From Candidatus Aenigmatarchaeota archaeon (GTDB lineage Archaea; Aenigmatarchaeota; Aenigmatarchaeia; CG10238-14; SCSR01): a stretch of DNA of 45,612 nt. Positions 1,118 to 39,669 of the stretch are shown here, piece after piece. Below the pieces are notes generated by a model that had not been told where the DNA came from, did no database searches, and worked only from the letters and a program-made list of their open reading frames with translations. Position numbers and translations under genes: made by a program. Every line of letters begins with the position of its first letter. Within the stretch, counting starts at the first letter, position 1. The stretch spans positions 1-45,612 of the forward strand of contig JAWADS010000003.1 in NCBI GenBank assembly GCA_038998625.1, written 5' to 3'.

Positions 1118-1164
1118 TTTATATAGATTACGGACCACCAATGGTGGTTCTAAATCTATATAAA
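1118..1164. promoter_or_regulatory. 47-bp palindrome copy A (divergent TATA boxes around ACCAC-N5-GTGGT)
   Basis: TTTATATAGATTACGGACCAC CAATG GTGGTTCTAAATCTATATAAA lies between divergent genes. The right TATATAAA ends 22 nt before ATG 1187. Confidence 0.8.
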
Positions 1165-1186
1165 CCCCCTTTTTCAAAACTTTTTT

Positions 1187-1606
1187 ATGTTAAATTTAGT
1201 TCCAACCCTTTATGATACGAAGATTTTTCCTGATCCTCGAGTTTCTGAAATTATTGAAGAATCAAAGAAAAAAGTTGCAGAATATTTCAAAATACCAAAG
1301 TATTTGCTTGATGGTGTTAAATTTAAGATATCCAAATTACCAGAATTTTATCAAATCGGAATGAAATTTGTTGATGGTTATTTGGTAAAATATATAAAGA
1401 AGGTGGGGAAAGTTCTAGGTTTATTTTTTCCTTATAAAAATGAAATCTACTTAGATTATGAAAATTTATACGATGAAAAACTTTTGAAAAGAACTATAAT
1501 TCATGAACTTGTTCACAAGGCGCAAGAAGTTTTTGGAAGGATTTATAGCTTGCCAAGATATTTAATTGAAAAAGAAGCATATGAAGTTACAAATAAATTG
1601 GCTTAA
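1187..1606 (+). CDS. Small HEXXH zinc-metallopeptidase-like protein
   Basis: TIIHELVHKAQ motif with a downstream EKEA helix (gluzincin-like third ligand) and upstream GLF...EIYLD strands. Confidence 0.7.
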   Translation: MLNLVPTLYDTKIFPDPRVSEIIEESKKKVAEYFKIPKYLLDGVKFKISKLPEFYQIGMKFVDGYLVKYIKKVGKVLGLFFPYKNEIYLDYENLYDEKLLKRTIIHELVHKAQEVFGRIYSLPRYLIEKEAYEVTNKLA

Positions 1607-2073
1607 TGTTTTATTTTATCACAAAAAATTTTGACTTGCATTTCAGGCATTTTCAACTTATGTTCTTGAACTTTATTTTCATCGTAAATATGAATAACTT
1701 TATAACCAAGCGCAGTTAATGCTTCTGCAATATATCTGCGATGGCAACGAAAGAACAAAAGCTCTGCACAAGTAATTACAACATTTTTATAATCAATTAT
1801 TTCCATCAATTTTTTTATAGCATCTGCAAACTCAGAAGTTTTTGTAAATGCTTCATATCCTTCTTTTCTAAATCCTCCAAGTTCTGGATAATGTAAATAA
1901 TCAATCTTATTTCTCCTTAATTCTATTTCTAAATTCTCCTTGTTAAACCACGGAAATTTTTTACTAGAAGGAAATTTTCTTACATCAATCAATAAATCTA
2001 TTTTGAAATGTTTCAAAATTTTAAGGAATTCTCCAAAGCTTCTAGTGGAGTGACCAATCGTAAAAATTTTCAT
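1603..2073 (-). CDS. DUF488 family protein
   Basis: MKIFTIGHSTR, LIDVRKFPSS, ELGGFR and CAE...RCHRR motifs. Start moved to the ATG at 2073. Confidence 0.9.
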   Translation of the reverse strand: MKIFTIGHSTRSFGEFLKILKHFKIDLLIDVRKFPSSKKFPWFNKENLEIELRRNKIDYLHYPELGGFRKEGYEAFTKTSEFADAIKKLMEIIDYKNVVITCAELLFFRCHRRYIAEALTALGYKVIHIYDENKVQEHKLKMPEMQVKIFCDKIKH

Positions 2074-2077
2074 AAAT

Positions 2078-3235
2078 TTATTTCTTTCCTTCCTCACTAA
2101 TTTCTTTATCTTTCAAAACTTTAGCTAAGTCATGAATCAATTTTCTTACATATTCTCTCATTTCATAAACTTCCTTATCAGAAATCTCATGGATTTTTTT
2201 CTCATCTGACTTTTTCTTTAATTCTTCTACCCTCTTCCATACATCCCAATAATAAGGTTCAATTATCTTTTTATCAATAAATTCTTGTTTAAAGGTTACT
2301 GGAATTTCTTCTTGCTTAGGATTTTTATTTAAACTCTTCAAAGCTGTTAATGCTGCTTTATACATAACTTCATGCGTCCTCTCCAAAATTTTCTCCCTTT
2401 TTCTTATTTCTAAAGCATTTAGCAGGGCGAACATTTTATCCACAAATTTTTCAGCCCTATCTAACCATTCATCCACAAATTGTCCTGATGCATCCATCAA
2501 TTCTTTATGTTCAATTTTTTTCCTAATTTCAATTATTTCCCTTAGCCATTCAGCATATTGTGGTTCCAAAATTCCTGGTTCCACTAAAAATTTTTTCACT
2601 TCTTCATAAGCTTTACTTGGAACTGGTGGTGATAAACCCATGAACATTAAAACAGCTTGGGCAGAATTCAGAATAGCATAATAAACATCTTCTGCTAACA
2701 TTAACAATTTTACAGTTTTTGCCCTCATAATTTTCTTTGGTGCCCCTTCCATGTAATTTTCTATAGCTTCCCTTGTGGTTGGAATTCTACCCATTTCTAA
2801 AAGTTTTTTAATTGGAGCAAAGAATCCAGTATCATAAAGGGGCAAACCTTCTTTAATGAAATTGTATATTATAGGATGAGCTACTCTTGCGTAATCCCAA
2901 AATTCAGTTAGAGTATAGCTAGGCTGTACAGAAATTTTTTCAGAAATCTCCTTTGCTATCTTTTCCATTTCTTCATCTAGTTTGTCCAAAAATTCTGGTG
3001 TGACTTCGTTAAACTGAGTGTCATCAACAATAACAAAAATATCTATGTCACTAGTTGGTTTAAATTCTTCTCTTACTACAGAGCCCATCATTACTATGGC
3101 TTTTATATATTTTCCATATTTTTCTAAAATTTTCTTGGAGAATTCTTCAGCTTTTTTTAAAATTTCTTCTTTTGTTTCTTGCCTCTTCTCATTTTTTGTT
3201 TTTTCAGTCTTTTCTTCTTTGTTCATATAAACCAA
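2078..3235 (-). CDS. Nucleotidyltransferase-HEPN fusion protein (385 aa)
   Basis: Pol-beta type GS...DIDIFVIVDD motif, followed by a helical HEPN-like domain with an intact Rx4H (RKKIEH) and an extra C-terminal helical domain. Confidence 0.85.
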   Translation of the reverse strand: MVYMNKEEKTEKTKNEKRQETKEEILKKAEEFSKKILEKYGKYIKAIVMMGSVVREEFKPTSDIDIFVIVDDTQFNEVTPEFLDKLDEEMEKIAKEISEKISVQPSYTLTEFWDYARVAHPIIYNFIKEGLPLYDTGFFAPIKKLLEMGRIPTTREAIENYMEGAPKKIMRAKTVKLLMLAEDVYYAILNSAQAVLMFMGLSPPVPSKAYEEVKKFLVEPGILEPQYAEWLREIIEIRKKIEHKELMDASGQFVDEWLDRAEKFVDKMFALLNALEIRKREKILERTHEVMYKAALTALKSLNKNPKQEEIPVTFKQEFIDKKIIEPYYWDVWKRVEELKKKSDEKKIHEISDKEVYEMREYVRKLIHDLAKVLKDKEISEEGKK

Positions 3236-3279
3236 TAATAACTTTGCCTATTTAAACATAAGCATATCAACACAAATTA

Positions 3280-4134
3280 TTACTCCTCTATTTCACTCAG
3301 TTCTTCTCCCAAAACTTCTTTAGGAATTAATTTTTTAAACCTCTCTACAATTTTTTCTGTTAGTTGAAGGGTTTTCTCTAAATACTCCCCTCTAACATCT
3401 TTTACTATTTTATGATCAATATCTTTCCATAGCTTATCCAACTCTTTAAATTTCTCTATATATTCCTCTTCCAGCTTATTTTCTTTCACTAATCTTTCCA
3501 AAAATTTGGGTATATCTTTTGGATCAGGTTGAGCTTTGTAGTGAAACATAACGGCAGATTGAATCATATCTATCGCAGTATAGCGCAAATCAAAAACAAT
3601 TGCTTTTAAATCTAACTTTATTTTTTTGAGTCGGGCTTCACTAGCCTTTGCTTTTAAAGAAATGGTTTCTTCGCTGGGCGGAATTAAACCCATTTGAAGC
3701 ATTCTTTGAATAGGCTTAATGAAACCTGTATCGTAAATTGCTAAACCATATCTCAAAAAGTTAACTAATTCAGGCGAACCATGCCTTATCCATTCCCAGA
3801 ATTTTGTGAGGGCATGAACTTGGATATGTAAATCTTTTAGTTCATGGGCCATTAAATAAAGATGGGAAATAATTTTTTCAAAATCCTCTGTTGATTTAGT
3901 AGCAGTATCATCAAGGATAACAAAAGCATCCACATCACTCCCCTTTGTCATAGTTCCTTTAACAGCAGAGCCAAAAATCACAACCGATTTTACAATATCT
4001 CCATATTGTTTTCTAGCATCATTGGTAAACTTTACTACTTTGGCTATAACATCACTAGGCACTTTTATTTCTTCTTTTTCTTTTTTAGCTAATTTCACAT
4101 CCTCCAACTCTTTTTCTAAATTCTCAATATCCAT
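3280..4134 (-). CDS. Nucleotidyltransferase-HEPN-like protein, paralogue of neighbour
   Basis: FGSAVKG...SDVDAFVILDD motif. Shares LTxFW and YDTGFxxPI with the upstream-coordinate paralogue. WKDIDH stands in place of Rx4H. Confidence 0.85.
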   Translation of the reverse strand: MDIENLEKELEDVKLAKKEKEEIKVPSDVIAKVVKFTNDARKQYGDIVKSVVIFGSAVKGTMTKGSDVDAFVILDDTATKSTEDFEKIISHLYLMAHELKDLHIQVHALTKFWEWIRHGSPELVNFLRYGLAIYDTGFIKPIQRMLQMGLIPPSEETISLKAKASEARLKKIKLDLKAIVFDLRYTAIDMIQSAVMFHYKAQPDPKDIPKFLERLVKENKLEEEYIEKFKELDKLWKDIDHKIVKDVRGEYLEKTLQLTEKIVERFKKLIPKEVLGEELSEIEE

Positions 4135-4179
4135 ATTACACCTTTACACAATAAACCGATTTAAATTTAAAGTCTGTTG

Positions 4180-6198
4180 TTATCTAAATCTTTCCTTTCT
4201 CCATTCTTCAACTTTTCCTTTTTCTACAACAGCCCTACCCAAAAATCCATGTTCTTCTTCGGGCACTATAATTAAACCTTTTAACGGATCTAAGGCATGC
4301 TCTCTAATAACAACAATCTGCCTTTCCATGGATGCCACCTGACCAATATCTATACCAAAAAACTTTTTAAATTCTTCTGGTTTGTTTAGAATATCTTCAG
4401 GTTTTATATTTTTTTCCAAGAATTCAACGATTATTTTCAAGGCTGTTATACTTTGTCTTACTTCTTGAGGTGACCCCCTTTCGAAAATTATGTAGACTTC
4501 TTTTCCTTTACCCATACCTTTTTGTTGTAATTTAAAGTAAATTTTATATAAATACCACATTGCTTCAGTTCCTAAAGGAATATGAATGTGGGCAGGCATG
4601 AGAACAGAAGGATAACCGGAATGAATTATCCTTACAAATTTACCAGCATCTTCTGGCATTAAATCTACAACTATATCAGGATCTATATTGGAAGAAAGCA
4701 AATGCTCAAGATCAATAGCGATACCCATGATTTTTCCTTCAGGATCAATTTCCTTTATCAAATAGTACATTTGTAAAGGATTAGGCAGCCTTGACCATTC
4801 TGCTATTAAAGGTGAGCTCATGGGCGTCTCCAAAGCGAAAAATATTTTCCCTTTTGCATCTTCCAAAACTTTTTTTAAATCATATCTTTTATGAATAGTG
4901 TCATCAGGACACTTAGACTGCATAAAGTGCCCCCAAATATATTTTGCTGAAACAGCGGGGACCCAAAGCCTAAAATCTAGTTGGAACTGTTCATCATCTA
5001 TGGAAAATCTTTCTATTCTATGTTCTTTTTTCCAATCTTCAACAGTATAATCTTTTTTATTCTTTCTTTTTTTCTCGAACTCAACAAGATATTTTACATT
5101 AATATCAACAATATTTTTCCAAAGGGGGTCATTTGTTAATTCCATATATTTAGCGATTATGTAGTAAGCTATTCTTTCGGAGCCATAGGCTAAGTTTACA
5201 CTTTCAATTGCTTCTTTAAATCTAGTTATCCATCTTTCTTCCACAATCTGCTTTAAAGTTAGATATTCTTTCTTTTCTTTTTCATCTAATTCTGCTGGAT
5301 TCAATTCTTTTCTTTTAACAGCCTCAGCTTTTTCTAACTTTTCTTTTAATCTCTTATAAATTTCCCTTCTTTCCCTTCTTTCCTTTAAAGATATTTCTGT
5401 TGTTAATATACTTTGTTGAAAATATCCCATTTCCCTTTCTAATTTAAGTTTTTCTTCTTCAGGTAATTGTATTTTTTTTTCAATTATTTGCATTAATTTT
5501 TCTTTTCTTTCTTCCAACTCTATTTTCAATCTATTTAATTCATCTTCCATATGGGGAATTTCTATTTCAAGGGACCTAATAGTTTCATTAACATTATCCT
5601 TTATCGCTTCGAATAAAGAAGGTAGATGTAAGATTTCCATTATATTTTTTTGTCTAACGGCCCATTGGAGTAAAGGGATATCATTTCCTAATTCATCCTT
5701 TGCAAAAATTTTTTTGATTTTTGTTTCTTCCAAAAAATAAGTTAAAGGTCTACCCCAAAAATCCACAAGCTGCAAAGGCTCCAATTGTCTCGAGGCTAAG
5801 AGGAAAGAATAAGATTCTGAAGAATGAACGAGCATGTATTTAGCCCCCAATTTTATACAGTTTTCCAAAATGTAATAATGTCTTTCATGGGAAAACCTAT
5901 ACTTATCAGCAATGCTTTCATCTAAATATGGCAGTTCAATTTCCCCAAAAGCTTTGGCTTCACTATGTATACCAAAATTTATTCCAAGCTTTTCTATAGC
6001 TTCCTTTACTTTTTTTTCTAAATGTGGTTCGTTGAATTCAGCTATTGATTCTAAATCTACCTGTGCAAACCTTACACCTTGCATCAAAGGAAAGCCAGAA
6101 ATTTTTCTAGCAATTCCAATATATTGTAGTCCGCCTTCTCCTTCTTGTCCTCTAGCTATGCCCCAAAGACCTGAAGAAATGCCTACAATATAGGGCAT
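4180..6198 (-). CDS. Endonuclease IV / xylose-isomerase-like TIM-barrel metalloprotein with large coiled-coil insertion
   Basis: Ordered metal-ligand motifs GIHSE, LVHSS, ALETP, IDLEH, IIHSG, AHIHIPLG and IFERG, with a long E/K/R-rich helical insert between LVHSS and ALETP. Confidence 0.7.
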   Translation of the reverse strand: MPYIVGISSGLWGIARGQEGEGGLQYIGIARKISGFPLMQGVRFAQVDLESIAEFNEPHLEKKVKEAIEKLGINFGIHSEAKAFGEIELPYLDESIADKYRFSHERHYYILENCIKLGAKYMLVHSSESYSFLLASRQLEPLQLVDFWGRPLTYFLEETKIKKIFAKDELGNDIPLLQWAVRQKNIMEILHLPSLFEAIKDNVNETIRSLEIEIPHMEDELNRLKIELEERKEKLMQIIEKKIQLPEEEKLKLEREMGYFQQSILTTEISLKERRERREIYKRLKEKLEKAEAVKRKELNPAELDEKEKKEYLTLKQIVEERWITRFKEAIESVNLAYGSERIAYYIIAKYMELTNDPLWKNIVDINVKYLVEFEKKRKNKKDYTVEDWKKEHRIERFSIDDEQFQLDFRLWVPAVSAKYIWGHFMQSKCPDDTIHKRYDLKKVLEDAKGKIFFALETPMSSPLIAEWSRLPNPLQMYYLIKEIDPEGKIMGIAIDLEHLLSSNIDPDIVVDLMPEDAGKFVRIIHSGYPSVLMPAHIHIPLGTEAMWYLYKIYFKLQQKGMGKGKEVYIIFERGSPQEVRQSITALKIIVEFLEKNIKPEDILNKPEEFKKFFGIDIGQVASMERQIVVIREHALDPLKGLIIVPEEEHGFLGRAVVEKGKVEEWRKERFR

Positions 6199-24816: not shown

Positions 24817-24984
24817 TCATTTTTCTTCTGCATAGACAATAGCATCTCTATTAATTATTCTTTTCTTCCCTCTACTTTCTAAAACAATCCATTGGTTGGC
24901 ATCTTTTAAAGTTCCTTCTAAAGAAATAGAAGTATCACCAAGCATTACAATTAGCTTTACTTTTTTTCCAATTAACTCCTTCAT
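24817..24984 (-). CDS. 55-aa Sm/LSm-like microprotein, absent from ORF track
   Basis: Manual translation: MKELIGKKVKLIVMLGDTSISLEGTLKDANQWIVLESRGKKRIINRDAIVYAEEK. ATGA overlap with the lhr stop; ends 1 nt before the MPE ATG. Confidence 0.75.
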   Translation of the reverse strand: MKELIGKKVKLIVMLGDTSISLEGTLKDANQWIVLESRGKKRIINRDAIVYAEEK

Positions 24985-27900
24985 TCTCCTACCCTTTCCA
25001 AAACTTTTTTATGCAACTCTAATAATATTTTTTTCCTATCTTCCATTAAAACTACATCAGATTCCCCTAAAGCTATTAAAGAATGGGAAAAAGGACTAGG
25101 CAAATCACACTCTTCCAAAAATTCAAGTTTAATTTTTCCTTCTTCAATTTCTTTCAAAATTTCTTTAGCATGCTCTATATCCATATAATCTTGTAAGATT
25201 TCACGATATGTTTCTTTTAATACAGGAAAACCTTCAATTTTTTCACAAACTTTTATTAGTCTATCAGCATTCATTTGTTGTTTGGTAACTCTTATTTCAT
25301 ATCCTTTATAATTCCTTAAAACCATTAAAGCTCTTGTTGCGGAGTGCCTAAATTTTCTTCTTAAAAGCTCTGTTTGCCTCAAGGCTTTTTTCAAAATTTC
25401 TTCTAAATTTTCTGAATTAACTAGCTTAACAACTTCCTTTGGATCAATTCTTTTTGGCTTCAATTCCTTTATCTTTTTAATAAAAAGCCATTTGTTTTCT
25501 AAGGCTTCATTGGGTAAAGAAAGCATAAAGCCATTATCGCTAATAGTTACAGCTATAGACTTTCCAATTTTTTTAATTAAAGCATAAGCAAAGGCCCTAG
25601 ATAGAGCATCATTTACACGCCTTCCATATAAAGTGTGGAAAATTAAGTTTTGATTTCCTCTTTCATCAATATAATTTTCCACTAAAATTCTCTCATGGGA
25701 AGGAAAGCCTTTTGCCCCCATTTCTTCTAAAAATCTTTTCTGATAGTAGAAATAATCCACTATAGCTTTAGCAGCCCATTCAGTAACAGGATACTCCTTT
25801 AACAACCAATTCACAATTTCTTTTTTAGATTTTTTGTTTATCAATTCAAACATTTTTTCTCTAAATTTCCCAATTTCTATGGCCAATTCAAAACTTAATG
25901 GTAATTGTTCCGAAAACCAGCTGGGCACCGTAGGTCTTTTTTCTTTTACTGGTAAAACAAATGCTTGGGCTTGCTTAGCTTTAACAAATTGATAGGTTTT
26001 TCCTGCTAAAACAAAAATATCTCCCGGCACAAGCCTCTGTAGAAATTCTTCCTCTATACTTCCAATATATTTTCCATCCAAACTTTTTACTTTAATTTTT
26101 ACTTCGTCAGGAATTGTGCCAATGTTTAATGAATAAATAACCCTAGCATATTTTCCTCTCCTTCCAAAAACCATATCATTAAAGTCCACCCAAATTTTCC
26201 CGTAAACTTTTTTATCTTCTAAAGTGTGATAAGCTCCAGAAAGATATTCAAGAACAGAAACAAAATCCTTCCACTCTAAATTGCGATAACAATAAGATCT
26301 TCTAATTAAATTAAAAGCTTCTTTTATGTTCCACTTCTTTTCCAAACTCATTCCCATTATATGTTGAGCTAAAACATCTAAGCAATTTTGAGGAATTTGT
26401 ATTTTATCTAAAAAATATTCATAAGCCTTCTTAGCCATAACTGTTGTTTCTACAAGATCATCATGGTCTAGACATATTACCCTGCCTATAGAGGTTTCAT
26501 GTAACTTATGCCCAGCCCTGCCAATCCTTTGCATTAGACGCGAAATACTTTTTGGGCTCCCTAGTTGCACTACTAAATCAATATAACCAATGTCTATGCC
26601 AAGTTCAAGACTTGTGCTGGAGTTTTGAGTTATAATTCCGTTGACAATATAATTATGAAATTTATAAACATCGACAAGATCATAAATTTCGTGCAATTTT
26701 ATTTTTTCAATTTTCTTTATCTTTTCCCAAAAAACATGCCCTTTTATTAATTTTTTTAAATATTCCGTTTCTTCAGTTTTTCCAAATTTTTCAAAAAAAT
26801 TCAAAACCCTAAATAAAGTTTTTCTGTTGAAATAGTGCTGATCCTTTTCATAGCTCTCTAAATCAATTCCAACTTCTTTCTTAAAATTCCAGCTTTTTAT
26901 TTTTAATTTTTTTCTTATATTCAATAAAATTTTACCTATTTGAGGAATTCTATCTATTGATATACTTTTAGTTTTAATTATTCCTTTCAACTCCTGACAA
27001 TTATCTCTAAAAAATCTTATTTCCTTAACAAATTTAGTGATATATTCTCCACTAATAATAGAAACTTTTCCTCTTCGAATGGAAGACACGATACCAATTT
27101 TTAGAAGAAGTCTATTCAAGCCATATGCTAATGATTTGCTGGTAGCATTAAAGTCTATTGACGATAAATTCCCATTTTTTATTACTAAATTGCCATTACC
27201 ATCAAAATAACCAGCTAAAAATTCAACTATGTAATTTTTAGGTAGGGAGAAAATAAATTTAGGTATAAAAGTTTTTCTTGTTTCTTCACCTTCTGGGGTG
27301 CAAAGATTTTTTATTAAAGATGCAAAAAGGGATGAATACCGAAATCCTATAATTTCCCCAGATTTTTTCATAAACTCTTTATCTATCCCAAATTCTTTTT
27401 TAATTATTGAACTATATTTTTTTATCAAATACAGATTTTTATTTAAAACGATCACTTTACTATGGTATATATTGCCTCTAGCAAGAAAGAAGCCTAAAAA
27501 TCGTAAAAATGATGGACTCAATATAGGAGACGATAATTTTAATTTTTTCTTATTTGTACCTATATTACTCAATTTTAACAAATAATTTTCATTTCCTAAA
27601 TCTCTACAAATTTTTTTGAAAACAAAAATCTTCAACCAACAGCGATTATTAAAAAAATTATATAGCAAATTCCTATTAAGATTTAAACACCTTGCAGCAT
27701 TAGTTATGGTGCCATATTTTTTTAATAATTTTTTCTTTAAATCTGTTAAAATTTCTCTAGTTGGCTTGACAAAACAATTTTCATTCGTCAAGTATTCTAT
27801 ATAATAAGGAATTTTAAAATTATGGTTATTTGGTATACATCGTATGGTTGCTATAAACTCGCCCTTTTTGAGATCTTGGGCCTTTTTCCATTTTAATATT

Positions 27901-29174
27901 CCATCACTAATTGTCAAAAGTTTATGTTCTTCGCTACACTTTATTTCCTTTCCGAGATCAGTTTTAATATATAACCCATTTAGAATTGAATTCCTTTTAT
28001 TTATTGAACTAAAATAAGTCTTCTGTAAATTCAGGTGTTGAGGGTTCAAAGAAAAAATTTCTGCATCATTATTTAATTTTGATATTTTTTCCCATTTGCC
28101 ATCACTAAGTAAAATTTCTGAATCTTTATCCACACACACTATTGTTTTTAATAGTCCTTTCTTCAGTCTCTCTTCCAAATCTAGTCTTATTTCCCTCGCA
28201 ACACTGCTGTGATGCGCTCCTATTTGATCTTCAGTATAGGTTTCAGGAAAAGTTTGTTTTAAATGATGCACAACCCTCTCAGTTCCACTTCTTGTATTAG
28301 TGAAGACTAAAGTTGTTCTGTGTTGGTTTATTAATTTGTGCAAAAGATTATACATTTCACTTGTAATTTTTTCTGCCGGTGTGTAAACAATATCTTTTAC
28401 CGGAGATAAAACTTTTATATCCATATGTTTCACAAATCTTGCGTCAACTATAGTGCAATCTCTTTCTTTTCCATTCTCATAACCAACCAAGAATTTTGCA
28501 ACAGCCTCAAGAGGTGAGAGTGTAGCTCCTAGTCCTATTCTTACTAAGCTCTTGCCAACAAAATCTTGCAACCTTTCTAGGCTTAAGCTTAAATGTGCAC
28601 CACGCTTAGAATTTGCAAGCTCATGAATTTCATCGACAACAACCCATTTAACATTCTTAAATTTTTCCCTAAATTTTCTTGTACTCAAAACTACAGCAAT
28701 AGTTTCGGGTGTAGTTACTAAAATGTGTGGAGGTTTTTTCAATTGCTTTTGTTTTTCGTTTGGTGGCGTATCTCCAGTTCTAACAGCAATTCTAACTTCT
28801 GGTAGCACAATTTTCATTTCTTTCGCGATTTCCCTTATTTCCTTAAGCGGGACTAATAAGTTTCTGTAGATGTCATTATCTAATGCTTTAAGTGGAGAAA
28901 TGTAAACACAATAAACCATATCTTCAAGCTTTCCTTTTTCTGCTAAGGTAAACAAATAATCAAGGATAGATAGAAAAGAGGCCAAAGTCTTTCCAGAACC
29001 AGTGGGAGCAGTTATCAAAGTATTTTTTCCTTTGTGAATTAATTCTACAGCAAATTTTTGATGTAAAAGTAATTCTTTAAAATTTCTTTTAAACCATTCC
29101 CTAACATAAGGCCTAAGTAAAGCTAAAACTTTTTCATCTTTTTTTGGTTTTTTTATGTTAACATAGCGAATCAT
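24981..29174 (-). CDS. lhr: Lhr-type SF2 ATP-dependent helicase containing an intein
   Basis: APTGSGKT, ISPLKAL, TTPE, VDEIHE, HHSS, STSLELGIDIG and QRIGRAGH motifs. Confidence 0.96.
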   Translation of the reverse strand: MIRYVNIKKPKKDEKVLALLRPYVREWFKRNFKELLLHQKFAVELIHKGKNTLITAPTGSGKTLASFLSILDYLFTLAEKGKLEDMVYCVYISPLKALDNDIYRNLLVPLKEIREIAKEMKIVLPEVRIAVRTGDTPPNEKQKQLKKPPHILVTTPETIAVVLSTRKFREKFKNVKWVVVDEIHELANSKRGAHLSLSLERLQDFVGKSLVRIGLGATLSPLEAVAKFLVGYENGKERDCTIVDARFVKHMDIKVLSPVKDIVYTPAEKITSEMYNLLHKLINQHRTTLVFTNTRSGTERVVHHLKQTFPETYTEDQIGAHHSSVAREIRLDLEERLKKGLLKTIVCVDKDSEILLSDGKWEKISKLNNDAEIFSLNPQHLNLQKTYFSSINKRNSILNGLYIKTDLGKEIKCSEEHKLLTISDGILKWKKAQDLKKGEFIATIRCIPNNHNFKIPYYIEYLTNENCFVKPTREILTDLKKKLLKKYGTITNAARCLNLNRNLLYNFFNNRCWLKIFVFKKICRDLGNENYLLKLSNIGTNKKKLKLSSPILSPSFLRFLGFFLARGNIYHSKVIVLNKNLYLIKKYSSIIKKEFGIDKEFMKKSGEIIGFRYSSLFASLIKNLCTPEGEETRKTFIPKFIFSLPKNYIVEFLAGYFDGNGNLVIKNGNLSSIDFNATSKSLAYGLNRLLLKIGIVSSIRRGKVSIISGEYITKFVKEIRFFRDNCQELKGIIKTKSISIDRIPQIGKILLNIRKKLKIKSWNFKKEVGIDLESYEKDQHYFNRKTLFRVLNFFEKFGKTEETEYLKKLIKGHVFWEKIKKIEKIKLHEIYDLVDVYKFHNYIVNGIITQNSSTSLELGIDIGYIDLVVQLGSPKSISRLMQRIGRAGHKLHETSIGRVICLDHDDLVETTVMAKKAYEYFLDKIQIPQNCLDVLAQHIMGMSLEKKWNIKEAFNLIRRSYCYRNLEWKDFVSVLEYLSGAYHTLEDKKVYGKIWVDFNDMVFGRRGKYARVIYSLNIGTIPDEVKIKVKSLDGKYIGSIEEEFLQRLVPGDIFVLAGKTYQFVKAKQAQAFVLPVKEKRPTVPSWFSEQLPLSFELAIEIGKFREKMFELINKKSKKEIVNWLLKEYPVTEWAAKAIVDYFYYQKRFLEEMGAKGFPSHERILVENYIDERGNQNLIFHTLYGRRVNDALSRAFAYALIKKIGKSIAVTISDNGFMLSLPNEALENKWLFIKKIKELKPKRIDPKEVVKLVNSENLEEILKKALRQTELLRRKFRHSATRALMVLRNYKGYEIRVTKQQMNADRLIKVCEKIEGFPVLKETYREILQDYMDIEHAKEILKEIEEGKIKLEFLEECDLPSPFSHSLIALGESDVVLMEDRKKILLELHKKVLERVGE
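26622..28136 (-). mobile_element. Intein (505 aa) with LAGLIDADG-type endonuclease domain
   Basis: KTIV|CVDKDSEILL...SEEHKL...IYDL...HNYIVNGIITQN|SSTSLELG. Removal restores helicase motif V. Confidence 0.93.
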
Positions 29175-32843: not shown

Positions 32844-32929
32844 TTATCTTCATCATCTTAAAAAATCAGACCTTGAGTCTTCTTATTAAAATTTATTTAT
32901 TACTTAACTTTAACTCTTTTTCAGTTTAA

Positions 32930-33229
32930 TTATTCTTCTGGCTCATGCAAAACTTGAATTTTCCCTGTTCTTGGTACATTGAGCTGTAACTTATCTTTAA
33001 AACTTGTGGCAAAGGCCCCAGAAATTTTTACTGTATCTCCTATATCTACTTTATCTATATCTTTTTCCCATAAAGAAAGAGAAATTTGCCCTGTCGCATC
33101 TTCTAATAAAACATCCACAACACTTCTTCTTCCATATTTTGTGTTAACTTCTCTCACTTCAGACTTATCAATAACTTTAGCTTTTATTGTTATGTTACTC
33201 ATTCCAATTTTTATTTCTGATATGTTCAT
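32930..33229 (-). CDS. ssb: Single OB-fold ssDNA-binding protein (SSB/RPA-like)
   Basis: ISEIKIGM...KVIDKSEVREV...LEDATGQISLSLW...GDTVKI...LQLNVPRTGKI. Confidence 0.88.
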   Translation of the reverse strand: MNISEIKIGMSNITIKAKVIDKSEVREVNTKYGRRSVVDVLLEDATGQISLSLWEKDIDKVDIGDTVKISGAFATSFKDKLQLNVPRTGKIQVLHEPEE

Positions 33230-33271
33230 TTTAACTTACTTAATGCTTTTTGGATTTTATTTATTTAAATT

Positions 33272-33356
33272 TTTTTATTGGCTCGCTCCACTGAGCGGTC
33301 CACCTCGCGCAAGATATTAAACAAAGAATATAGGCGCGAGGTCCTTCTTTGTAAAA
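33272..33356 (-). ncRNA. 85-bp GC-rich structured element, copy 1 (candidate ncRNA/cis element)
   Basis: 82/85 identical to the reverse complement of 39713-39797. Interleaved 8-bp and 9-bp stems plus a small hairpin. Strand is inferred. Confidence 0.55.
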
Positions 33357-33393
33357 AATTGTAAAGCAAAAAAAATCAGCAAAAATTTCCCCC

Positions 33394-33440
33394 TTTATAT
33401 AGATTTAGAACCACCACGAGTGGTTCTAAATCTTTAAATA
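33394..33440. promoter_or_regulatory. 47-bp palindrome copy B
   Basis: TTTATATAGATTTAGAACCAC CACGA GTGGTTCTAAATCTTTAAATA. Confidence 0.8.
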
Positions 33441-33502
33441 TTAGTTCAAAAAAGTTTTAAATTTAAAATTTAACTTAATTCCCTCTACAATATATGAAAA
33501 AT

Positions 33503-33985
33503 TTATCTTATTACATCTGAAGTGGCTGCTCCGATAGAAGCAAAAAGAGAAACCAAAACAACTAGCTTAACTGCCCATATAACATCAGTTATTATATTGC
33601 CAATTATTCCTACTGTAAAAAGAACAGAAAAGCTGCAAACATAAGAAACTAAAATTACGGAAAAGACTCTTCTTTTAATTTGAAAGTTGAAGTATTTTTG
33701 ACGATAAATCAGGTAGCTCACTAAAAATGTCAGAAAGAACAATGCAAATGATCTGAAAATATCTAAAAGCTTAGCAATCTCCCAGACTTCCTGGGTAACT
33801 ATAAAGGGGGCTGACAAAATTAGGGCGCCAACAATTTGCTCCCCAATGTCGGAACGAGTAAAAGTTTTTGTAACAATCTTTTCTTTCAGCCTGTTGAAAT
33901 ATTCTTTTTCCCGTGATGTTAACTTTTTCAAATAGCTAATCCTACTTTCAGAAGGAATTTTCCACAGGCGTTTTTTCTTAAACAT
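33503..33985 (-). CDS. DUF2391-like integral membrane protein
   Basis: DIGEQIVGALILSAPFIVTQEVWEIA motif, four TM segments and an ASIGAATSD C-terminus. Confidence 0.78.
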   Translation of the reverse strand: MFKKKRLWKIPSESRISYLKKLTSREKEYFNRLKEKIVTKTFTRSDIGEQIVGALILSAPFIVTQEVWEIAKLLDIFRSFALFFLTFLVSYLIYRQKYFNFQIKRRVFSVILVSYVCSFSVLFTVGIIGNIITDVIWAVKLVVLVSLFASIGAATSDVIR

Positions 33986-34012
33986 TATAATAAAATTCTG
34001 TTTTTGCTTGTA

Positions 34013-34966
34013 TTATTTTTTTACAGAAGGATAAGTTCCTTTTTTCATGAAAACTCTATCAGTTCTTACGGCCAACCCCACTTTCTTTTCATACATCTCT
34101 TCACTCTTCATCTTTGCAATTCCTAAAGCAATCAATTCATTTTTCAAGCTCATTATTGCTATGGTTTCGCCTGCTAAAATATTCTTTTGAATCCTTGTGA
34201 TGCCATTAACATATACTGGGGCTCCGTTACAAATAGAATCTACAGCAGAATCTTTTACAAAAACTTTTTTCACATGATCTATAGCAAATTCTATAGGAAT
34301 TAAAATTTTTCTTAGTTCTTTTTCTTCTTTATTTTCCCTCCAAAATTCATAGGCATCTTTTATTTCGACCAGCGAATGAGCTTGATCTTCATGAAAATTC
34401 CCAACTATTATCCTTCTCAATTCAGTCATATGGGCGCCAACATTTAAAGATAGACCAAAATCGTGAACAAGCTTTCTTATGTAAGTTCCAGCCTCAGTGC
34501 CAACACGAAACAAAACATCTCTTCCGTTAACTTCTAAAATATCAAAAAATCTTACTTCCCTTTCTCTAATCTTTCTGGCCACAGCAGATTTTTTTGGGGG
34601 AATTTGCTTTATTCTTCCAATAAAATTTTTTATATTTTCTTTCAACAAATCTTCTGAAACATCTTTATGTAAATGCATTACTCCAACATATTCCTTATCC
34701 AAACCCATTAAAACAGGCATGGCTTTTACAGCTTCTCCTAAAGCCACAATCAAAACTCCGGTAACTTTTGGATCTAGAGTTCCAGCATGACCAACTTTTT
34801 TAACATTAAAAATTTCTTTTATCCATTGCGAGATTTGGTGCGAAGTTGGCCCAGAATGCTTATCCACAACTATAACAGAAGAATTAATTAATTCCTCTAT
34901 ATTTCTTTTTTCTGGTTCTTTTCCGTAGTCAGGATTTGTTTCCTCTTCTTCTCTAATTAGCCACAT
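34013..34966 (-). CDS. cbf5: H/ACA pseudouridine synthase Cbf5 (TruB family)
   Basis: DKHSGPTSHQ, GHAGTLDPKVTGVL, EAGTYIRKL and a PUA domain. Confidence 0.97.
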   Translation of the reverse strand: MWLIREEEETNPDYGKEPEKRNIEELINSSVIVVDKHSGPTSHQISQWIKEIFNVKKVGHAGTLDPKVTGVLIVALGEAVKAMPVLMGLDKEYVGVMHLHKDVSEDLLKENIKNFIGRIKQIPPKKSAVARKIREREVRFFDILEVNGRDVLFRVGTEAGTYIRKLVHDFGLSLNVGAHMTELRRIIVGNFHEDQAHSLVEIKDAYEFWRENKEEKELRKILIPIEFAIDHVKKVFVKDSAVDSICNGAPVYVNGITRIQKNILAGETIAIMSLKNELIALGIAKMKSEEMYEKKVGLAVRTDRVFMKKGTYPSVKK

Positions 34967-35142
34967 ATAATTAGATTTAAAAATAATCTTTAGTAAAGTT
35001 TACTTTTGCTATGGCAATATTTTTTAATTTTTAACCAAAAAATAATTAACTTTAAATCTTTTTTCTTAAAATTGTGCTCTAATTTAAAAACTTTTCTGCG
35101 ATTAAAATAAAAAGTTTTCTATCAAATAAAAAATAGAGAAGA

Positions 35143-36117
35143 ATGAATAGGGCTTTAATTGGCTTGCTTTTGAGTTTAGTTGGATTAGCCTCTGCTTTGA
35201 TTATTGCTAATACAACAATTTCTCAGCAACAAATATACAAAGCCATGAACATGAGCTTTGATATGGATACAAAAATTGAAGTTTATCCTGGAGAAACAAA
35301 AACTATAGAGGGAAGATTATTAAACACAGGATGGTTATGGCTTTATAATGTCACGATAAAAGCAGAGAATCTTACTTATGAGCATACAATAACTCCAAAT
35401 AATATTCCAGTCTTGCCGATAAAATATTATTGGGTTGATGGAAGAGCCTTTAGAACTCCTCAAAACTTTAGCATAACCATAAAAATCCCTGAAAATCTAA
35501 CAGCAGGAGAGAAGGAATTCTTTTTAACAGCTAACGGAAGTTTTAGAATTTACTTACCTATGGATATGAAGTATTTACATTATCCTATGCAAATAAAGCA
35601 AAGAGTTGTGCTTAAAGTAGTTCCAACACCTTCAATAGAGATAAAAGATATAACTTTTCCCGAAGTTGTTATAGCAAATAAAACTTTTGAGATTTCAATG
35701 CTTGTTATAAACAATGGAGATATAGGCACTACTGCTAACATTTCCATAGATTTACCAAAAGATTGGCAAGTTGATTCAAAAACAAAAAGTATAAGAATTG
35801 AGGCTAGAGAAAATAAAACCCTTAATTTTAGCGTGACGCCTAGCAATAGTAGTGGGCAAGTTTCCCTCTATCTTTTATATCCAGTAAGGCAAAAGATAAT
35901 TAATATCACTAAAACTGGACCTTTCTTGGTGCCTCAATTAGAAGAAGTTGTAGAAAAGCCAGTGCCAGGATTAATAGAAAGAATTGTATCGTTTATAAAA
36001 TCTCTCCCACCCATCTTACTTTTGATAATAGTTATTTTATCAGCTGTAATAATTTGGAATTTGGCTGGTGTCATAAGATTTTATAGAAGAAGAAAGAAAC
36101 CTGAAAAACCTGGATAA
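35143..36117 (+). CDS. Membrane-anchored surface protein with Ig-like (CARDB/NEW3-like) domains
   Basis: Signal peptide, LLNTG and INNGD strands, DLPKDWQV, many sequons, and a C-terminal TM followed by RRRKK. Confidence 0.82.
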   Translation: MNRALIGLLLSLVGLASALIIANTTISQQQIYKAMNMSFDMDTKIEVYPGETKTIEGRLLNTGWLWLYNVTIKAENLTYEHTITPNNIPVLPIKYYWVDGRAFRTPQNFSITIKIPENLTAGEKEFFLTANGSFRIYLPMDMKYLHYPMQIKQRVVLKVVPTPSIEIKDITFPEVVIANKTFEISMLVINNGDIGTTANISIDLPKDWQVDSKTKSIRIEARENKTLNFSVTPSNSSGQVSLYLLYPVRQKIINITKTGPFLVPQLEEVVEKPVPGLIERIVSFIKSLPPILLLIIVILSAVIIWNLAGVIRFYRRRKKPEKPG

Positions 36118-36134
36118 ATTTTATTAATTTTTTA

Positions 36135-36536
36135 TTATTTTTTATTTCTCTTTTGAGTTTTCTTCTCATCCTTTTTAGATTTTTCTTCTTCAATTTTCTT
36201 CTCTTCCTTTTTTACCAAAAATTCTTTAAGTTGAGCTGCAGAGGGTTTCTTCAAACCAAATTTTTTAATTAAGTTTGCCTTTTCATAAGCAGAAATTACT
36301 TCCTCATCACTAGCATCTTCTTTTATATCTAAAACATATTCTAAAGGCTCCAAGTGCATTATGTTACATCTTTTCCTTCTAACTCCTGTCAAAATTTTTG
36401 GGCCTGTTATTAAAACAAAGCTTCCTGATTTCCCTTTTTCTTTAGGAAAATTCTTTATTACTACACAAAGCTTACCTGCCTCACTACCGGCAATTTTCCT
36501 GCAAACTCTTCCTATTTCAAGGGTCAAGGTCATCAC
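36135..36536 (-). CDS. rpl14e: 50S ribosomal protein L14e
   Basis: EIGRVCRKIAGSEAGKLCVV and TGVRRKRCNIMHLEP motifs. Confidence 0.95.
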   Translation of the reverse strand: MMTLTLEIGRVCRKIAGSEAGKLCVVIKNFPKEKGKSGSFVLITGPKILTGVRRKRCNIMHLEPLEYVLDIKEDASDEEVISAYEKANLIKKFGLKKPSAAQLKEFLVKKEEKKIEEEKSKKDEKKTQKRNKK

Positions 36537-36606
36537 TTTACAATTTTGTAATAAATTATAAATTAATTTTAATTATTTATTTTAAACTTTTTTGCCAAGA
36601 AAAAAT

Positions 36607-37083
36607 TTAACTTAATAACTTATTTAGGACCCATCCTATGGCCAGAGAAATAAAAACATACCAATAAACCCAATTTAAGGAAGAACCTATATAAGGCAAA
36701 TTAAAGGGCAGAGCTACAACATAACCAATTTTTTCATATTTAAAATGAAGCCATGGAAAGATTAGAGAAATAACTATAAGAGAAACAAACAATGTTTTAA
36801 TACTGTGTTTCATGAATTGGGTATTTATTTTCATCATCTCATTCAAAAATTTTTCCACTTCACCTTTATTTCCTGCTTGCTGAGCCTTTGTTAAGTTTTC
36901 CCTAATTTCTTCCATCTTATACTTTAGCTCTTTTAGAATATTTTTTCTAAAAATTATTTTATTTAAAGTCAGAATGAGGGAAGTAAGAATTATTGATACT
37001 AAAGTTATGGCTAAATAAGGGGGCAAAGTAGTTATAGGCCCAAGGATTATATCTACAGCAGCTATGATTTGCTGGAAAACCAT
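36607..37083 (-). CDS. EMC3/TMCO1 (DUF106) Oxa1-superfamily membrane insertase
   Basis: TM-coiled coil-TM-TM layout, WVYWY motif and position after secY. Confidence 0.88.
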   Translation of the reverse strand: MVFQQIIAAVDIILGPITTLPPYLAITLVSIILTSLILTLNKIIFRKNILKELKYKMEEIRENLTKAQQAGNKGEVEKFLNEMMKINTQFMKHSIKTLFVSLIVISLIFPWLHFKYEKIGYVVALPFNLPYIGSSLNWVYWYVFISLAIGWVLNKLLS

Positions 37084-37084
37084 T

Positions 37085-38548
37085 TTATCCTCCTAAAATT
37101 TTCCTGATGATTGGATGAGCCTCTTCCAATTTTTGATTTGAAAGTTCTTCATAATAATTATAAATAATCATAACAGTTAAAAGAATTCCTGTGCCTGTGC
37201 CTATGACATCTAAAATATCGGCTGAAGCAGCCAAAAGGCCAACAAGCAAACCGCCTAAAACTGCCAATGGCGGAATATACCTGTTTAAAACAGATTCTAT
37301 AATTCTTGGATCTCTTCTATAACCAGGAATTTGCATTCCTACACTAGATAATTGCTCTGCCACGCTTTTTGCATCCATACCAGCAGTATTAACCCAAAAA
37401 ACAGAAAACATAGTTGCTAAGGCTGTAAGTATGATTAAATAGATTATAGCACGAAGAATTTCAGTTGGCACTAAATTTTGATTTATTATATTGATCAAAA
37501 GGGTTCTTGGGGCAGAAAGATAATAAGCCATACCACTTGTAGGATTTCCTTGCTGATCATAACATCCTAAAGGCCCACATAAAAGGCCAAATTCATTAGG
37601 CTGCAATCCAAACCTTCCCATTAGTTGAATATTAGCAATCATGGCAGCAGCGAGAATAACAGGAATGTTGCTAGTATATAATAATTTCAAGGACCATGTC
37701 CTTCCAAAACCTTTTAGAGCTGCAAAGGCCAAAGGTATATTTATTTTTATGTGCTGGGCGTAAATAACGATGATGAAAATAATTGCTGTGGTAACGATGG
37801 GAAGAAAACTAACTGAAAAGGATGGAAGATCTCCAGCAAAAAGGCTAATAAGGCTAACCCATAAACGACCTGCAGGCGGATTCGTTGTAGAAGGAATGCA
37901 AGATGCTAAATCTAAAGGCTGACAGGTAGTAGCAAATGGAGAAAATATTCCTATAAAAATTTGTGTTGCTACTCCTGCTGCTATAAATAAACTAATTCCG
38001 GAGCCAAATCCCCATTTTGTTACCAAATCATCTAAAAAAATTACAATTATTCCACCTAAAGCTAATTGAAATATTACAAATGCTAAAATTCCTGGTCCTC
38101 CTGTAACTTGTATGGCCCCGGCTAAAACAAAAGCTATGGCTTCTAGGAAAGCAAAAATTATGGCTAATCCTTTATTCCAGCTCTGAAATTTTTTTCTATA
38201 TTCTGGCTTAGTAGTGTCCCATTTTAGGATTTTAGAACCTACAAGCAATTGTAATATAATACCAGCAGTAACTATAGGACCTATTCCTAAAGTCATTAAA
38301 CTACCAAATTTAGATCCCAATACAATTTCAAAAAATCTAAATTGTTGATAGGTCGCAGGAGCTACGCCATAAACAGTTATGTACGATAAAACTATGTAGA
38401 TGATTAAAGCTATACCAGTCCATTTCATCCTAGTGTTAAAACTTTGTCTGTAAGTAGGTTTTTCTACTGAAGGAAACCATCGAGAAATAGAGGAAATTAT
38501 ATCAAATTTTTTCTTTTGAGCTTCTTCCAAATTTTCTTCGCTATTCAA
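37085..38548 (-). CDS. secY: Preprotein translocase subunit SecY
   Basis: SLMTLGIGPIVTAG, GSGISLFIA, YTSNIPVIL, QIPGYRRD and GTGILLTV motifs. Confidence 0.98.
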   Translation of the reverse strand: MNSEENLEEAQKKKFDIISSISRWFPSVEKPTYRQSFNTRMKWTGIALIIYIVLSYITVYGVAPATYQQFRFFEIVLGSKFGSLMTLGIGPIVTAGIILQLLVGSKILKWDTTKPEYRKKFQSWNKGLAIIFAFLEAIAFVLAGAIQVTGGPGILAFVIFQLALGGIIVIFLDDLVTKWGFGSGISLFIAAGVATQIFIGIFSPFATTCQPLDLASCIPSTTNPPAGRLWVSLISLFAGDLPSFSVSFLPIVTTAIIFIIVIYAQHIKINIPLAFAALKGFGRTWSLKLLYTSNIPVILAAAMIANIQLMGRFGLQPNEFGLLCGPLGCYDQQGNPTSGMAYYLSAPRTLLINIINQNLVPTEILRAIIYLIILTALATMFSVFWVNTAGMDAKSVAEQLSSVGMQIPGYRRDPRIIESVLNRYIPPLAVLGGLLVGLLAASADILDVIGTGTGILLTVMIIYNYYEELSNQKLEEAHPIIRKILGG

Positions 38549-38952
38549 ACTTTCACCGCCCTACCACCAGCTTGCTCTATTTTCTTTATGGCAGATTTAG
38601 AAAAATACTTTGCCTTAATTGTCAAAGCTTGAGTTAGCTTGCCTTTGCCTAAAACTTTTTCATATCCCAATTGAGATAAATCAATTTCTTTTAATTTTTC
38701 TTTTTCAGCCAACTTATCAATTTCCTCTAGATTTATTATAGCTGCTTTCTTAGAAACTTCTTTAGGCTTCTTAAAACCTTCTTTACCAAAATGTTCCGGC
38801 TCATATTTTACTGTATAGCTCCATTTATGTTTGTGCATTCCAGCCTTGCCCCTACCTCCTCTACTCCCACCACCACGCCATTTTTTGTGAGAACCATGGT
38901 AAGTTCTATGACCCCTTCTCCACTTTCTTTTACTATGTCTCTTAACCACCAT
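38545..38952 (-). CDS. rpl15: 50S ribosomal protein L15
   Basis: RGGGSRGGRGKAG, KVLGKG and AIKKIEQAGG motifs. Confidence 0.97.
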   Translation of the reverse strand: MVVKRHSKRKWRRGHRTYHGSHKKWRGGGSRGGRGKAGMHKHKWSYTVKYEPEHFGKEGFKKPKEVSKKAAIINLEEIDKLAEKEKLKEIDLSQLGYEKVLGKGKLTQALTIKAKYFSKSAIKKIEQAGGRAVKV

Positions 38953-38957
38953 TTAAA

Positions 38958-39425
38958 TCACATCATCCTCTCTATCAACTCATTTATTTCTTTCCCCCTA
39001 TAACCCAAATCTCCTTTCGGATAATATTCTTTTATTGATTTAAATCCTTTTGAAGGTGGAGTTAACCTAAAAAAAGGTTGTAATTCTTCAAAATCTTTTA
39101 ACTTTATTCTGCCTGCAAGAATTTCTTCAGCAAAATTTTCAAATTTGTCAAAATCTGTAACTTCTTTTAAAATTTTTTCATCTACTCTACTTCCATTTTT
39201 TAATCTTAATCTTTTTTTCAATAATTTCACTAAAGTTTCTTTATCAATTTCCCCCCATGTAACATAATCTTTTACTTTTTCTATCATGCCTTTTATACTA
39301 GGAGAATTTTCCCATAAAGAGCAATGGTTAGCAGAGTTCAACCTAAGCATTTTCAATGTATCATTAACTTCTTTTTTTATCCCCACGCCACCTCTAATCC
39401 TAATCACAGCTAGCATAAATATCAT
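38958..39425 (-). CDS. rpl30: 50S ribosomal protein L30
   Basis: AVIRIRG, KDYVTWGEI, FRLTPP and GDLGYRG motifs. The real start may be ATG 39416. Confidence 0.96.
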   Translation of the reverse strand: MIFMLAVIRIRGGVGIKKEVNDTLKMLRLNSANHCSLWENSPSIKGMIEKVKDYVTWGEIDKETLVKLLKKRLRLKNGSRVDEKILKEVTDFDKFENFAEEILAGRIKLKDFEELQPFFRLTPPSKGFKSIKEYYPKGDLGYRGKEINELIERMM

Positions 39426-39479
39426 TATTATTCATAAAAATTATAAAAAAATTTGATTTTTGATGTTAATTTTTCCTGT

Positions 39480-39526
39480 CTTTTCAAAATTTACTACCAC
39501 TTTTAGGAGTTCTAAATCTATATAAA
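39480..39526. promoter_or_regulatory. 47-bp palindrome copy C (degenerate left arm)
   Basis: ...ACTACCAC TTTTA GGAGTTCTAAATCTATATAAA. Confidence 0.7.
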
Positions 39527-39550
39527 TTTTTCTATTTTTTCCTAGTTTTA

Positions 39551-39597
39551 TTTATAAAGATTTTGTACCACTTTTAGGAGTTCCAACTCCTAAGAGT
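39551..39597. promoter_or_regulatory. 47-bp palindrome copy D (degenerate right arm)
   Basis: TTTATAAAGATTTTGTACCAC TTTTA GGAGTTC... Shares the 18-mer TACCACTTTTAGGAGTTC with copy C. Confidence 0.65.
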
Positions 39598-39622
39598 TGT
39601 ATTTCCAATGCTTTTTAAAGCC

Positions 39623-39669
39623 TTTATATAGATTGCGAACCACTAATGGTGGTTCTAAATCTATATAAA
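39623..39669. promoter_or_regulatory. 47-bp palindrome copy E
   Basis: TTTATATAGATTGCGAACCAC TAATG GTGGTTCTAAATCTATATAAA. Confidence 0.8.

Follow-up and report, generated by a model that had tools for sequence, protein, structure and literature searches.

Sites bound by regulators of the TrmB family are described in PMC4158304 as inverted repeats that lie before a promoter's B recognition element (BRE) and TATA box, or at +1; according to that account the TGM (Thermococcales glycolytic motif) site of TrmBL1/Tgr goes with activation when it is upstream and with repression when it is downstream, and autoregulation has been reported or proposed for some family members. Here we analyse a 47-nucleotide (nt) palindrome, built around the core ACCAC-N5-GTGGT, that recurs in a 45,612-nt stretch of DNA (the window). 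The window is the entire contig C3 of an Aenigmatarchaeota assembly (G000; 469 kb, 19 contigs, 31-32% G+C, 92% complete by marker genes). The palindrome shares with the TGM an inverted repeat with a 5-nt spacer, the CAC-N5-GTG centre, a putative position beside BRE/TATA and the presence in the genome of a gene for a TrmB-family winged helix-turn-helix (wHTH) protein; the TGM-like geometry claimed in an earlier sequence-only reading of this DNA therefore agrees with the TGM as that paper presents it. Only CAC-N5-GTG is common to the two, however, since the half-sites here are ACCAC/GTGGT as against TATCAC-N5-GTGATA; full-length alignment of the candidate regulator is seen only with TrmBL2-type chains, TrmB matching it in the N-terminal part alone; some of the sites here are carried by a dispersed repeat; and the genes next to them encode nucleic-acid enzymes, OB-fold proteins and orphans and do not make up a regulon of sugar uptake and glycolysis/gluconeogenesis.

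Two further kinds of described sequence bear comparison. Promoter reuse in prokaryotes ('mobile' promoters), as PMC3575422 presents it, places near-identical promoter-bearing sequence before unrelated genes of one genome. The unit studied here does the same, but differs from what is set out there by a defined, putatively bidirectional two-armed operator, by its coupling to a GC-rich hairpin repeat and by its host, an archaeon of 0.47 Mb. Repetitive extragenic palindromes (REP/REPIN) and miniature inverted-repeat transposable elements (MITEs), (see also PMC8049555) are resembled by an 85-nt element found beside some palindrome copies, which is likewise a short intergenic sequence that forms hairpins and is GC-rich although the genome is AT-rich, with 20 near-identical copies and compensatory changes in two stem pairs. 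Unlike REP/REPIN sequences, this element is orientation-biased relative to genes, no RAYT/Y1 transposase was found in G000, and the palindrome itself has only seven cores and looks like a promoter element. The likeness to MITEs or other repeats derived from insertion sequences lies in the many near-identical short intergenic copies of the element and of a larger composite repeat; the difference is again that no cognate transposase was found in G000.

The core is best explained, from the comparisons below, as the candidate operator of a dimeric wHTH regulator and as the mark of a TrmB-family regulon that has been conserved across this family of archaea. To our knowledge next to nothing is known of how uncultivated archaea with very small genomes regulate their genes, and judged by titles and abstracts we found no regulon or operator from such lineages in the literature.

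The core, its putative promoter arms and a TrmB-family gene

With up to one mismatch allowed, ACCAC-N5-GTGGT matches the window five times where 0.20 matches are expected, a number reached by 0 of 100 shuffles. Perfect matches lie at 1134, 33410 and 39639; the other two, each with one mismatch (13145 and 41014), are within open reading frames (ORFs) and are chance-like. A repeat finder, with 1118-1164 as reference, joined 33394-33440 (81% identity), 39623-39669 (94%) and 39480-39526 (68%) into one 47-nt family and took 39552-39589 into a related 38-nt family. The resulting palindrome copies and variant sites in the window are:

1118..1164, palindrome copy A: left arm, core 1134-1148, right arm ending TATATAAA (1157-1164)
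33394..33440, palindrome copy B: core 33410-33424, left arm intact, right-arm TATA weakened (TCTTTAAATA)
39623..39669, palindrome copy C: core 39639-39653, both arms intact
39480..39526 (+), site in block A of the composite: ACCAC-TTTTA-GGAGT (39496-39510), then the intact arm TCTAAATC-TATATAAA
39551..39612 (+), block C of the composite: TATA-type left arm, ACCAC-TTTTA-GGAGT (39567-39581), 18-nt imperfect hairpin

The sequence-only reading had reported just this set, three strong 47-bp copies (1118, 33394, 39623) and two weaker ones (39480, 39551), all intergenic and with the spacer always 5 nt; the ORF list and the raw sequence bear it out. Scanned genome-wide with its flanking genes, the perfect core occurs seven times, always between genes (outside the window at C1:67868, C4:8088, C5:19507 and C6:2763), while each of the six one-mismatch cores lies within an ORF. 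The reversed control pattern gave five matches in G000 with up to one mismatch, all coding, and at the same stringency the N5 spacer gave 13 matches as against 1 for N4 and 3 for N6. The half-sites are invariant across copies, and the N5 spacer and inner-arm bases vary without compensation, a pattern that fits protein-DNA contacts better than a hairpin. An exact pattern of palindrome plus arm had 0 matches in the viral collection, and its single metagenome match was an unrelated GC-richer repeat, which we put down to chance. A replication origin (with dyads like origin recognition boxes) or a dif site was considered and dropped, the copies being spread over at least five contigs and placed beside promoters.

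The right-arm box of copy A, TATATAAA, occupies positions -30 to -23 relative to the ATG at 1187, so the earlier claim that it is suitably placed for leaderless initiation holds. The core of copy A lies 38 nt from this ATG, exactly as the core at C4:8088 lies 38 nt from the ATG of a TrmB-family gene, and the arms of the two sites align. For comparison we used 70 genomes of the same family, the first 40 of which were examined more closely, together with 16 genomes from other families of the order; G001 belongs to the same genus as G000, and G053 (70% complete) to a sister genus. The first 40 relatives hold 24 cores (17 clearly intergenic, 4 within ORFs, 3 borderline). When the sites of relatives are oriented to the nearest start they follow one order, namely core, about 8 nt of the form nnTAAAnn, a TATA-like 8-mer, about 22 nt and ATG, with core-to-ATG distances clustering at 38-49 nt. 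In G053 nine of the 12 inspected cores, out of 23, have a frame-opening ATG 37-40 nt away on one side, with an AT-rich 8-mer at +9 to +16 behind a CTAAA-type stretch; in G048 two of seven cores have an ATG at such a spacing, one of them that of the TrmB orthologue. The words TTTAAA and ATATAA peak genome-wide 26-35 nt before starts, and the left arm read inward resembles the proximal promoter of a metallophosphatase gene in G001.

Given its spacing from start codons, the core is most readily understood as an operator placed against the BRE/TATA of outward leaderless promoters. A position before BRE/TATA is seen for two of the seven G000 cores, for nine of the 12 inspected in G053 and for many sites of relatives, but not for the copies in composite repeats. 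The arms, described earlier as ending in outward-facing TATA-like boxes, thus fit outward BRE/TATA halves at copy A, at the candidate regulator's own gene and at many sites elsewhere, and not at the composite copies; of the seven cores, copy A and C4:8088 stand at the canonical 38 nt from a gene start and the other five do not. The position of copy A, with ORF 1187 on one side and the 109-aa (amino acid) gene at 620-949 on the other, suggests a genuine divergent control region.

The gene preceded by the core at C4:8088 (C4:8141-8941) encodes a 266-aa TrmB-family wHTH protein that matches PF01978 at 7.4e-23 and PF11495 (TrmB C-terminal) weakly, at the cut-off; the closest relatives with a solved structure are TrmB (1e-12, over the N-terminal part alone) and TrmBL2-type chains (4e-9, full length). 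The 70 family genomes contain 85 perfect cores as against 15 matches to the reversed control, in keeping with the conservation in sister genomes that the palindrome's proposed role called for, and the 16 genomes from other families of the order contain none. Orthologues of the C4 protein, defined by E<=1e-35, are present in 38 of the 70, and at least one core was found in 24 of these 38 genomes versus 7 of the 32 without an orthologue. The core lies within 2 kb upstream of the orthologue, on the same contig, in at least 16 of the 38 (a minimum, because the count was made by hand comparison of core and orthologue coordinates and 20 core matches were unlisted). Four of these 16 cores are 38-48 nt away, five stand 76-79 nt away between divergent paralogues, and seven are at 0.95-1.7 kb; the four of the last group that were inspected (in G008, G010, G012 and G015) head a tightly packed operon whose last gene is the orthologue. 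The motif lies upstream of the orthologue at 40 nt in G001 and 42 nt in G019; G004 has it there too, with one mismatch. Among orthologues there is hardly any variation in the recognition helix, (V/I)PQSKIY, to which paralogues give no match. We infer that the C4 protein is the best candidate regulator and that it would also control its own gene.

The sites at 39480 and 39551 had been taken for degenerate copies, and this we do not uphold. ACCAC-N5-GGAGT with the CTAAATC-TATA arm is present in all four composites that have blocks A-C; block C with its variant core is about 80% conserved at two G001 loci; and the G001:C22 block homologous to block A carries a perfect core. In G053 (L114) ACCAC-N5-GGAGT is the promoter-proximal member of a two-site promoter, and related second half-sites hold the same place in two-site promoters at three G048 loci. 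An OB-fold gene, G000:C2:35892, has a weaker variant with that arm 23 nt ahead of its ATG, and its G019 orthologue has a perfect core at 39 nt. Because the variant is conserved outside G000, in G001, G053 and G048, ACCAC-N5-GGAGT forms a second, conserved site class and does not reflect decay.

The composite repeat and the S5/L30 junction

Palindrome copies B and C are blocks within a composite repeat of 170-327 nt, found at five loci (four with blocks A-C) with 90-97% identity. The portable module proposed earlier is thus real insofar as the same unit recurs at several loci, but at 33394 and 39623 the palindrome is not free-standing. Two 170-nt units, each a palindrome and an 85-nt element about 40 nt apart, are inverted copies of one another: the copy B unit (33272 on) and 39623-39797. 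The composites, the elements of the window and the genes that flank its S5/L30 copy are:

39471..39797 (+), composite, about 327 nt: block A 39471-39527, spacer B, block C 39551-39612, block D 39623-39669, spacer, block E 39713-39797 in reverse; A side at the L30 start, E side at the S5 stop
33272 on, 170-nt unit: D side at a 3' end, E side at the start of the SSB-like gene
C1:67697-68004, composite: A side at a 3' end, E side 31 nt from the start of a 301-aa wHTH gene (C1:68036-68941)
C5:19369-19694, composite, reversed: 3' ends on both A and E sides, the whole copy between convergent genes
C6:25224 to the contig end, composite: A side at a 3' end, E side beyond the contig end
33272..33356 (+), 85-nt element (type I), 37 nt from copy B, 96% complementary to 39713-39797
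39713..39797 (-), 85-nt element, starting 20 nt past the S5 stop codon
38958..39425 (-), ribosomal protein L30 gene
39818..40603 (-), ribosomal protein S5 gene

The gap between S5 and L30 (39426-39817) is 392 nt long and is filled by the composite. We fetched 1.5 kb upstream of L30 from 11 relatives. Eight have both genes, with S5 within about 20 nt of L30 in seven and a gap of about 950 nt in the eighth; the remaining three, G001 among them, gave no S5 match within the 1.5 kb. (L30 of G001 has a different upstream neighbour.) Comparison with this gene order shows the composite as an insertion into a normally tight S5/L30 junction, where it may supply a promoter for L30-L15-SecY.

Twenty copies of the 85-nt element were found in G000; compared with the window copy, identity is 93-100% for 18 of them and 84-86% for two variants on C6; the 18 copies outside the window are on contigs C1, C2, C5-C8, C12, C13, C16 and C17. 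Thirteen are plain and seven carry a 5' expansion of GCTCGYTTC-like units. The element folds as two hairpins (z = -4.6), and every one of the 20 copies keeps the 9-bp helix paired, with two pairs changed on both sides in both C6 variants, which are related, so that these compensatory changes may represent one event. Eleven of the 20 copies stand, in one orientation, within 42 nt past a same-strand stop, and the element is often 30-90 nt before the next start. Contig C17 starts and finishes in 85-nt elements, and the composite breaks contig C6. No copy of the element was found in 40 relatives, and an exact-pattern scan with the core of the element gave 0 matches in the species-genome and viral collections. 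An origin in split or otherwise linked tRNA genes was set aside, two copies being beside tRNA 3' ends and 18 not, as was a K-turn or H/ACA reading of the hairpin, whose internal loop, by eye, lacks the GA/AG arrangement. As to tRNA genes themselves, ARAGORN called only 13 in G000, and an odd four-letter anticodon call at C18:1038-1128 suggests intron-bearing or otherwise unusual ones.

Searches of G000 with Y1 PF01797, PF01609, PF00665 and PF00589 (DDE, rve and tyrosine-recombinase families) gave no match. PF07282 hit one broken TnpB zinc-ribbon scrap at C2:15114-15239, a 63-aa frame with a stop, which is the only transposon-related trace that we found in G000. It lies far from every copy, so the transposase association that would have made the palindromes insertion-sequence ends was not found in this genome. 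No terminal inverted repeats or target-site duplications are evident by eye in the aligned flanks, whose AT-richness makes short duplications unreadable. The distribution of the palindrome in G000 is best explained by two native promoter positions (1118 and C4:8088) together with cargo of a lineage-specific composite (33394, and 39623 with 39480 and 39551).

Objections and alternative explanations

The explanation that we favour joins four parts: an operator, a TrmB-family regulator, arms that serve as promoter halves, and spread within the composite. The 15-bp ACCAC-N5-GTGGT would be bound by a dimeric wHTH regulator, of which the product of C4:8141-8941 is the best candidate and would be autoregulated. 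Each 16-bp arm would be one promoter half, consisting of about 8 nt of CTAAA type (BRE-like) and then an outward 8-bp TATA box, with the operator centre about 46 nt before the leaderless ATG and abutting BRE/TATA from upstream. By analogy with TrmBL1/Tgr of the Thermococcales, this upstream position would go with activation; repression by occluding TFB is the alternative mode. At copies B and C the operator/promoter unit would have been captured in a composite with variant sites and the 85-nt element, and that composite would then have been copied to at least five intergenic places irrespective of gene orientation. As a whole we consider this explanation probable, though well short of secure.

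Several observations weigh against it. Only two of the seven perfect cores of G000 are at the canonical 38 nt from a start codon; the arms of the composites are 115-215 nt from the nearest co-directional start (those of the SSB-like gene, the 301-aa wHTH gene and L30), and others face 3' ends, as do the whole C5 copy, the S5-facing arm of copy C and the A sides of the C1 and C6 copies. Arms of this sort, without a start at the canonical distance, could act from afar, could give antisense or long-leader transcripts, or could be inert. Position-specific composition upstream of genes is weak genome-wide and could not decide the orientation of the TATA boxes; as these are also nearly symmetric, the direction of an arm is read from start-codon spacing alone. 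All eight public runs that match window positions 33000-41000 are DNA from hot-spring metagenomes, none RNA. Among relatives, 14 of the 38 orthologue-bearing genomes have no perfect core, and G053 has 23 cores yet no full-length orthologue, its short-form candidate being 38% identical over the DNA-binding domain with the same helix; the genomes are moreover not independent samples, so that the family counts overstate their statistical weight. Finally, three wHTH genes adjoin cores in G000 (C4 TrmB, C1 301-aa and C6 170-aa), and the assignment of the regulator is for that reason not unique. The single dimeric regulator of the sequence-only reading is therefore retained only in part: the core is tied to a TrmB-family gene, but not to that gene exclusively.

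This last objection can be turned into an alternative, in which the core is an operator as proposed but is bound by the product of C6:2221-2733 or of C1:68036-68941 (with a C-terminal wHTH) instead of the C4 protein. Both proteins have PF01978-type HTH matches; the C6 gene and its 87%-identical G001 orthologue each have a core about 30 nt past the stop; the C1 gene starts 31 nt beyond a composite; and a genome with 23 cores and no full-length C4-type orthologue, G053, would be easier to understand. Against this, the adjacency of the C6 and C1 genes to a core is limited to this genus or genome, with the core not in promoter position for the C6 gene, and tblastn of the two proteins against 24 core-bearing loci of relatives recovered only the G001 orthologue of the C6 protein. 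The C4-type orthologue, by contrast, has the core upstream in at least 16 of 38 genomes from many genera and a near-invariant recognition helix, and we think it distinctly unlikely that one of the other two is the regulator.

A different objection is that the palindromes at 33394 and 39623, and perhaps that at 1118, are pieces of a selfish or structural MITE- or REP-like repeat with no regulatory role. The composite indeed has sharp ends, keeps 90-97% identity across five loci whichever way the neighbouring genes run, breaks contigs (as at the end of C6; C17 has an 85-nt element at either end) and occupies a junction whose two genes lie close together in relatives; the 85-nt element, with 20 copies in G000 and none found in 40 relatives, had no exact-pattern match to its core in the species-genome or viral collections, and the palindrome-plus-arm pattern had one unrelated metagenome match and no viral one. 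What such a repeat would lead one to expect is less in evidence, since no Y1, DDE, rve or tyrosine-recombinase gene was found in G000 (92% complete), only the TnpB scrap, and by eye there are no clear terminal inverted repeats or target duplications. Blocks A-C are moreover conserved upstream of genes in G001, of the same genus, the half-sites are invariant in all copies, and copy A and the C4 site stand outside any composite in canonical promoter position; we judge a purely selfish or structural repeat improbable. Still less credible, and in our view very improbable, is that the palindrome works as a nucleic-acid hairpin, that is as a terminator, a transcript stabiliser or a small-RNA stem. 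Stretches of 57 nt around it fold as RNA at -28.8 and -22.9 kcal/mol (z = -8.8 and -6.7), and some copies lie between convergent genes (C5) or directly past genes. Any palindrome folds well, however; here the inner arm bases are mismatched and vary between copies without compensating change, no T-run follows the stem, and a hairpin would not account for the constant 37-40 nt that separate core and start codon in many genomes. Rfam at gathering score matched only a tRNA in the whole window and not the palindrome, and around 33200-33520 there were only chance-level hits (E >= 1.5).

Neighbouring genes and what the finding would mean

The genes beside cores that have not yet been placed are:

1187..1606 (+), 139-aa ORF downstream of the right arm of copy A, HELVH motif, orphan
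620..949 (-), 109-aa ORF, 168 nt from the left arm of copy A
32930..33229 (-), SSB-like OB-fold gene beyond the left arm of copy B and the 85-nt element
C6:2221-2733, 170-aa wHTH gene; its G001 orthologue (G001:C22) is 87% identical

The product of ORF 1187 may be a small metalloprotease (HELVH is of the HExxH type). It matched no Pfam family at or below 0.001, and a search of 5.8 billion proteins returned two, itself and one of 65% identity. The 109-aa gene across copy A has orthologues in G010 and G012, 52% and 48% identical, which stand second in the TrmB operon that a core heads there. By tblastn, no homologues of the proteins from the G008 and G015 operons were found in G000. The SSB-like gene has a TATA-like stretch of its own at about -39 to -28, and in G019 its orthologue is followed by a core just past the stop and then by a LAGLIDADG gene; OB-fold genes therefore adjoin cores in both genomes. 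At the 170-aa wHTH gene the core lies about 30 nt past the stop in both G000:C6 and G001:C22, with the promoter arm on opposite sides of it in the two.

Elsewhere, the core precedes genes for LAGLIDADG proteins (in three genomes), OB-fold and NUDIX proteins, an SNase-like nuclease, a metallophosphatase, RNase H, an HhH-GPD glycosylase, a PolB-exonuclease-like protein, two aspartyl proteases and orphans. We read this, as an impression and not as the result of a test, as a regulon leaning toward nucleic-acid metabolism. The 23 perfect cores of G053 have the form ACCACC-NNN-GGTGGT, and most of those inspected stand 37-40 nt before unrelated genes with apparently leaderless starts (RNase H, HhH-GPD, PolB-exonuclease-like, aspartyl proteases); this would appear to be a separate expansion of the same operator-promoter unit.

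The genome is archaeal by its genes for TFB, L19e, Cbf5, SecY (of archaeal type) and an intein-bearing Lhr helicase, and its size suggests a DPANN-like symbiont as its source. The helicase gene (window positions 24981-29174, minus strand) encodes an Lhr-type protein of 1397 aa whose intein has a LAGLIDADG domain, and at 2078-4134 (minus strand) two neighbouring nucleotidyltransferase-domain genes (385 and 284 aa) lie beside a DUF488 gene.

The core, 8 nt, TATA, about 22 nt and ATG make up the promoter grammar of a candidate regulator-operator pair, and the core motif could be used to annotate promoters and leaderless starts throughout the family. The composite is a visible case of repeats spreading putative regulatory sites, including into a ribosomal-protein operon. 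One may go further and suppose that the operator and its two-way promoter became the passenger of a hairpin repeat that is rewiring a minimal archaeal genome, with the G053 expansion marking this as a recurrent route; we put that forward tentatively and think it rather unlikely. If it is true, the S5-L30 operon has been cut, and L30-L15-SecY, the SSB-like gene and a second wHTH regulator may fall under a TrmB-type factor; the copying of promoter cassettes would then be a recurrent way in which reduced genomes grow regulons.

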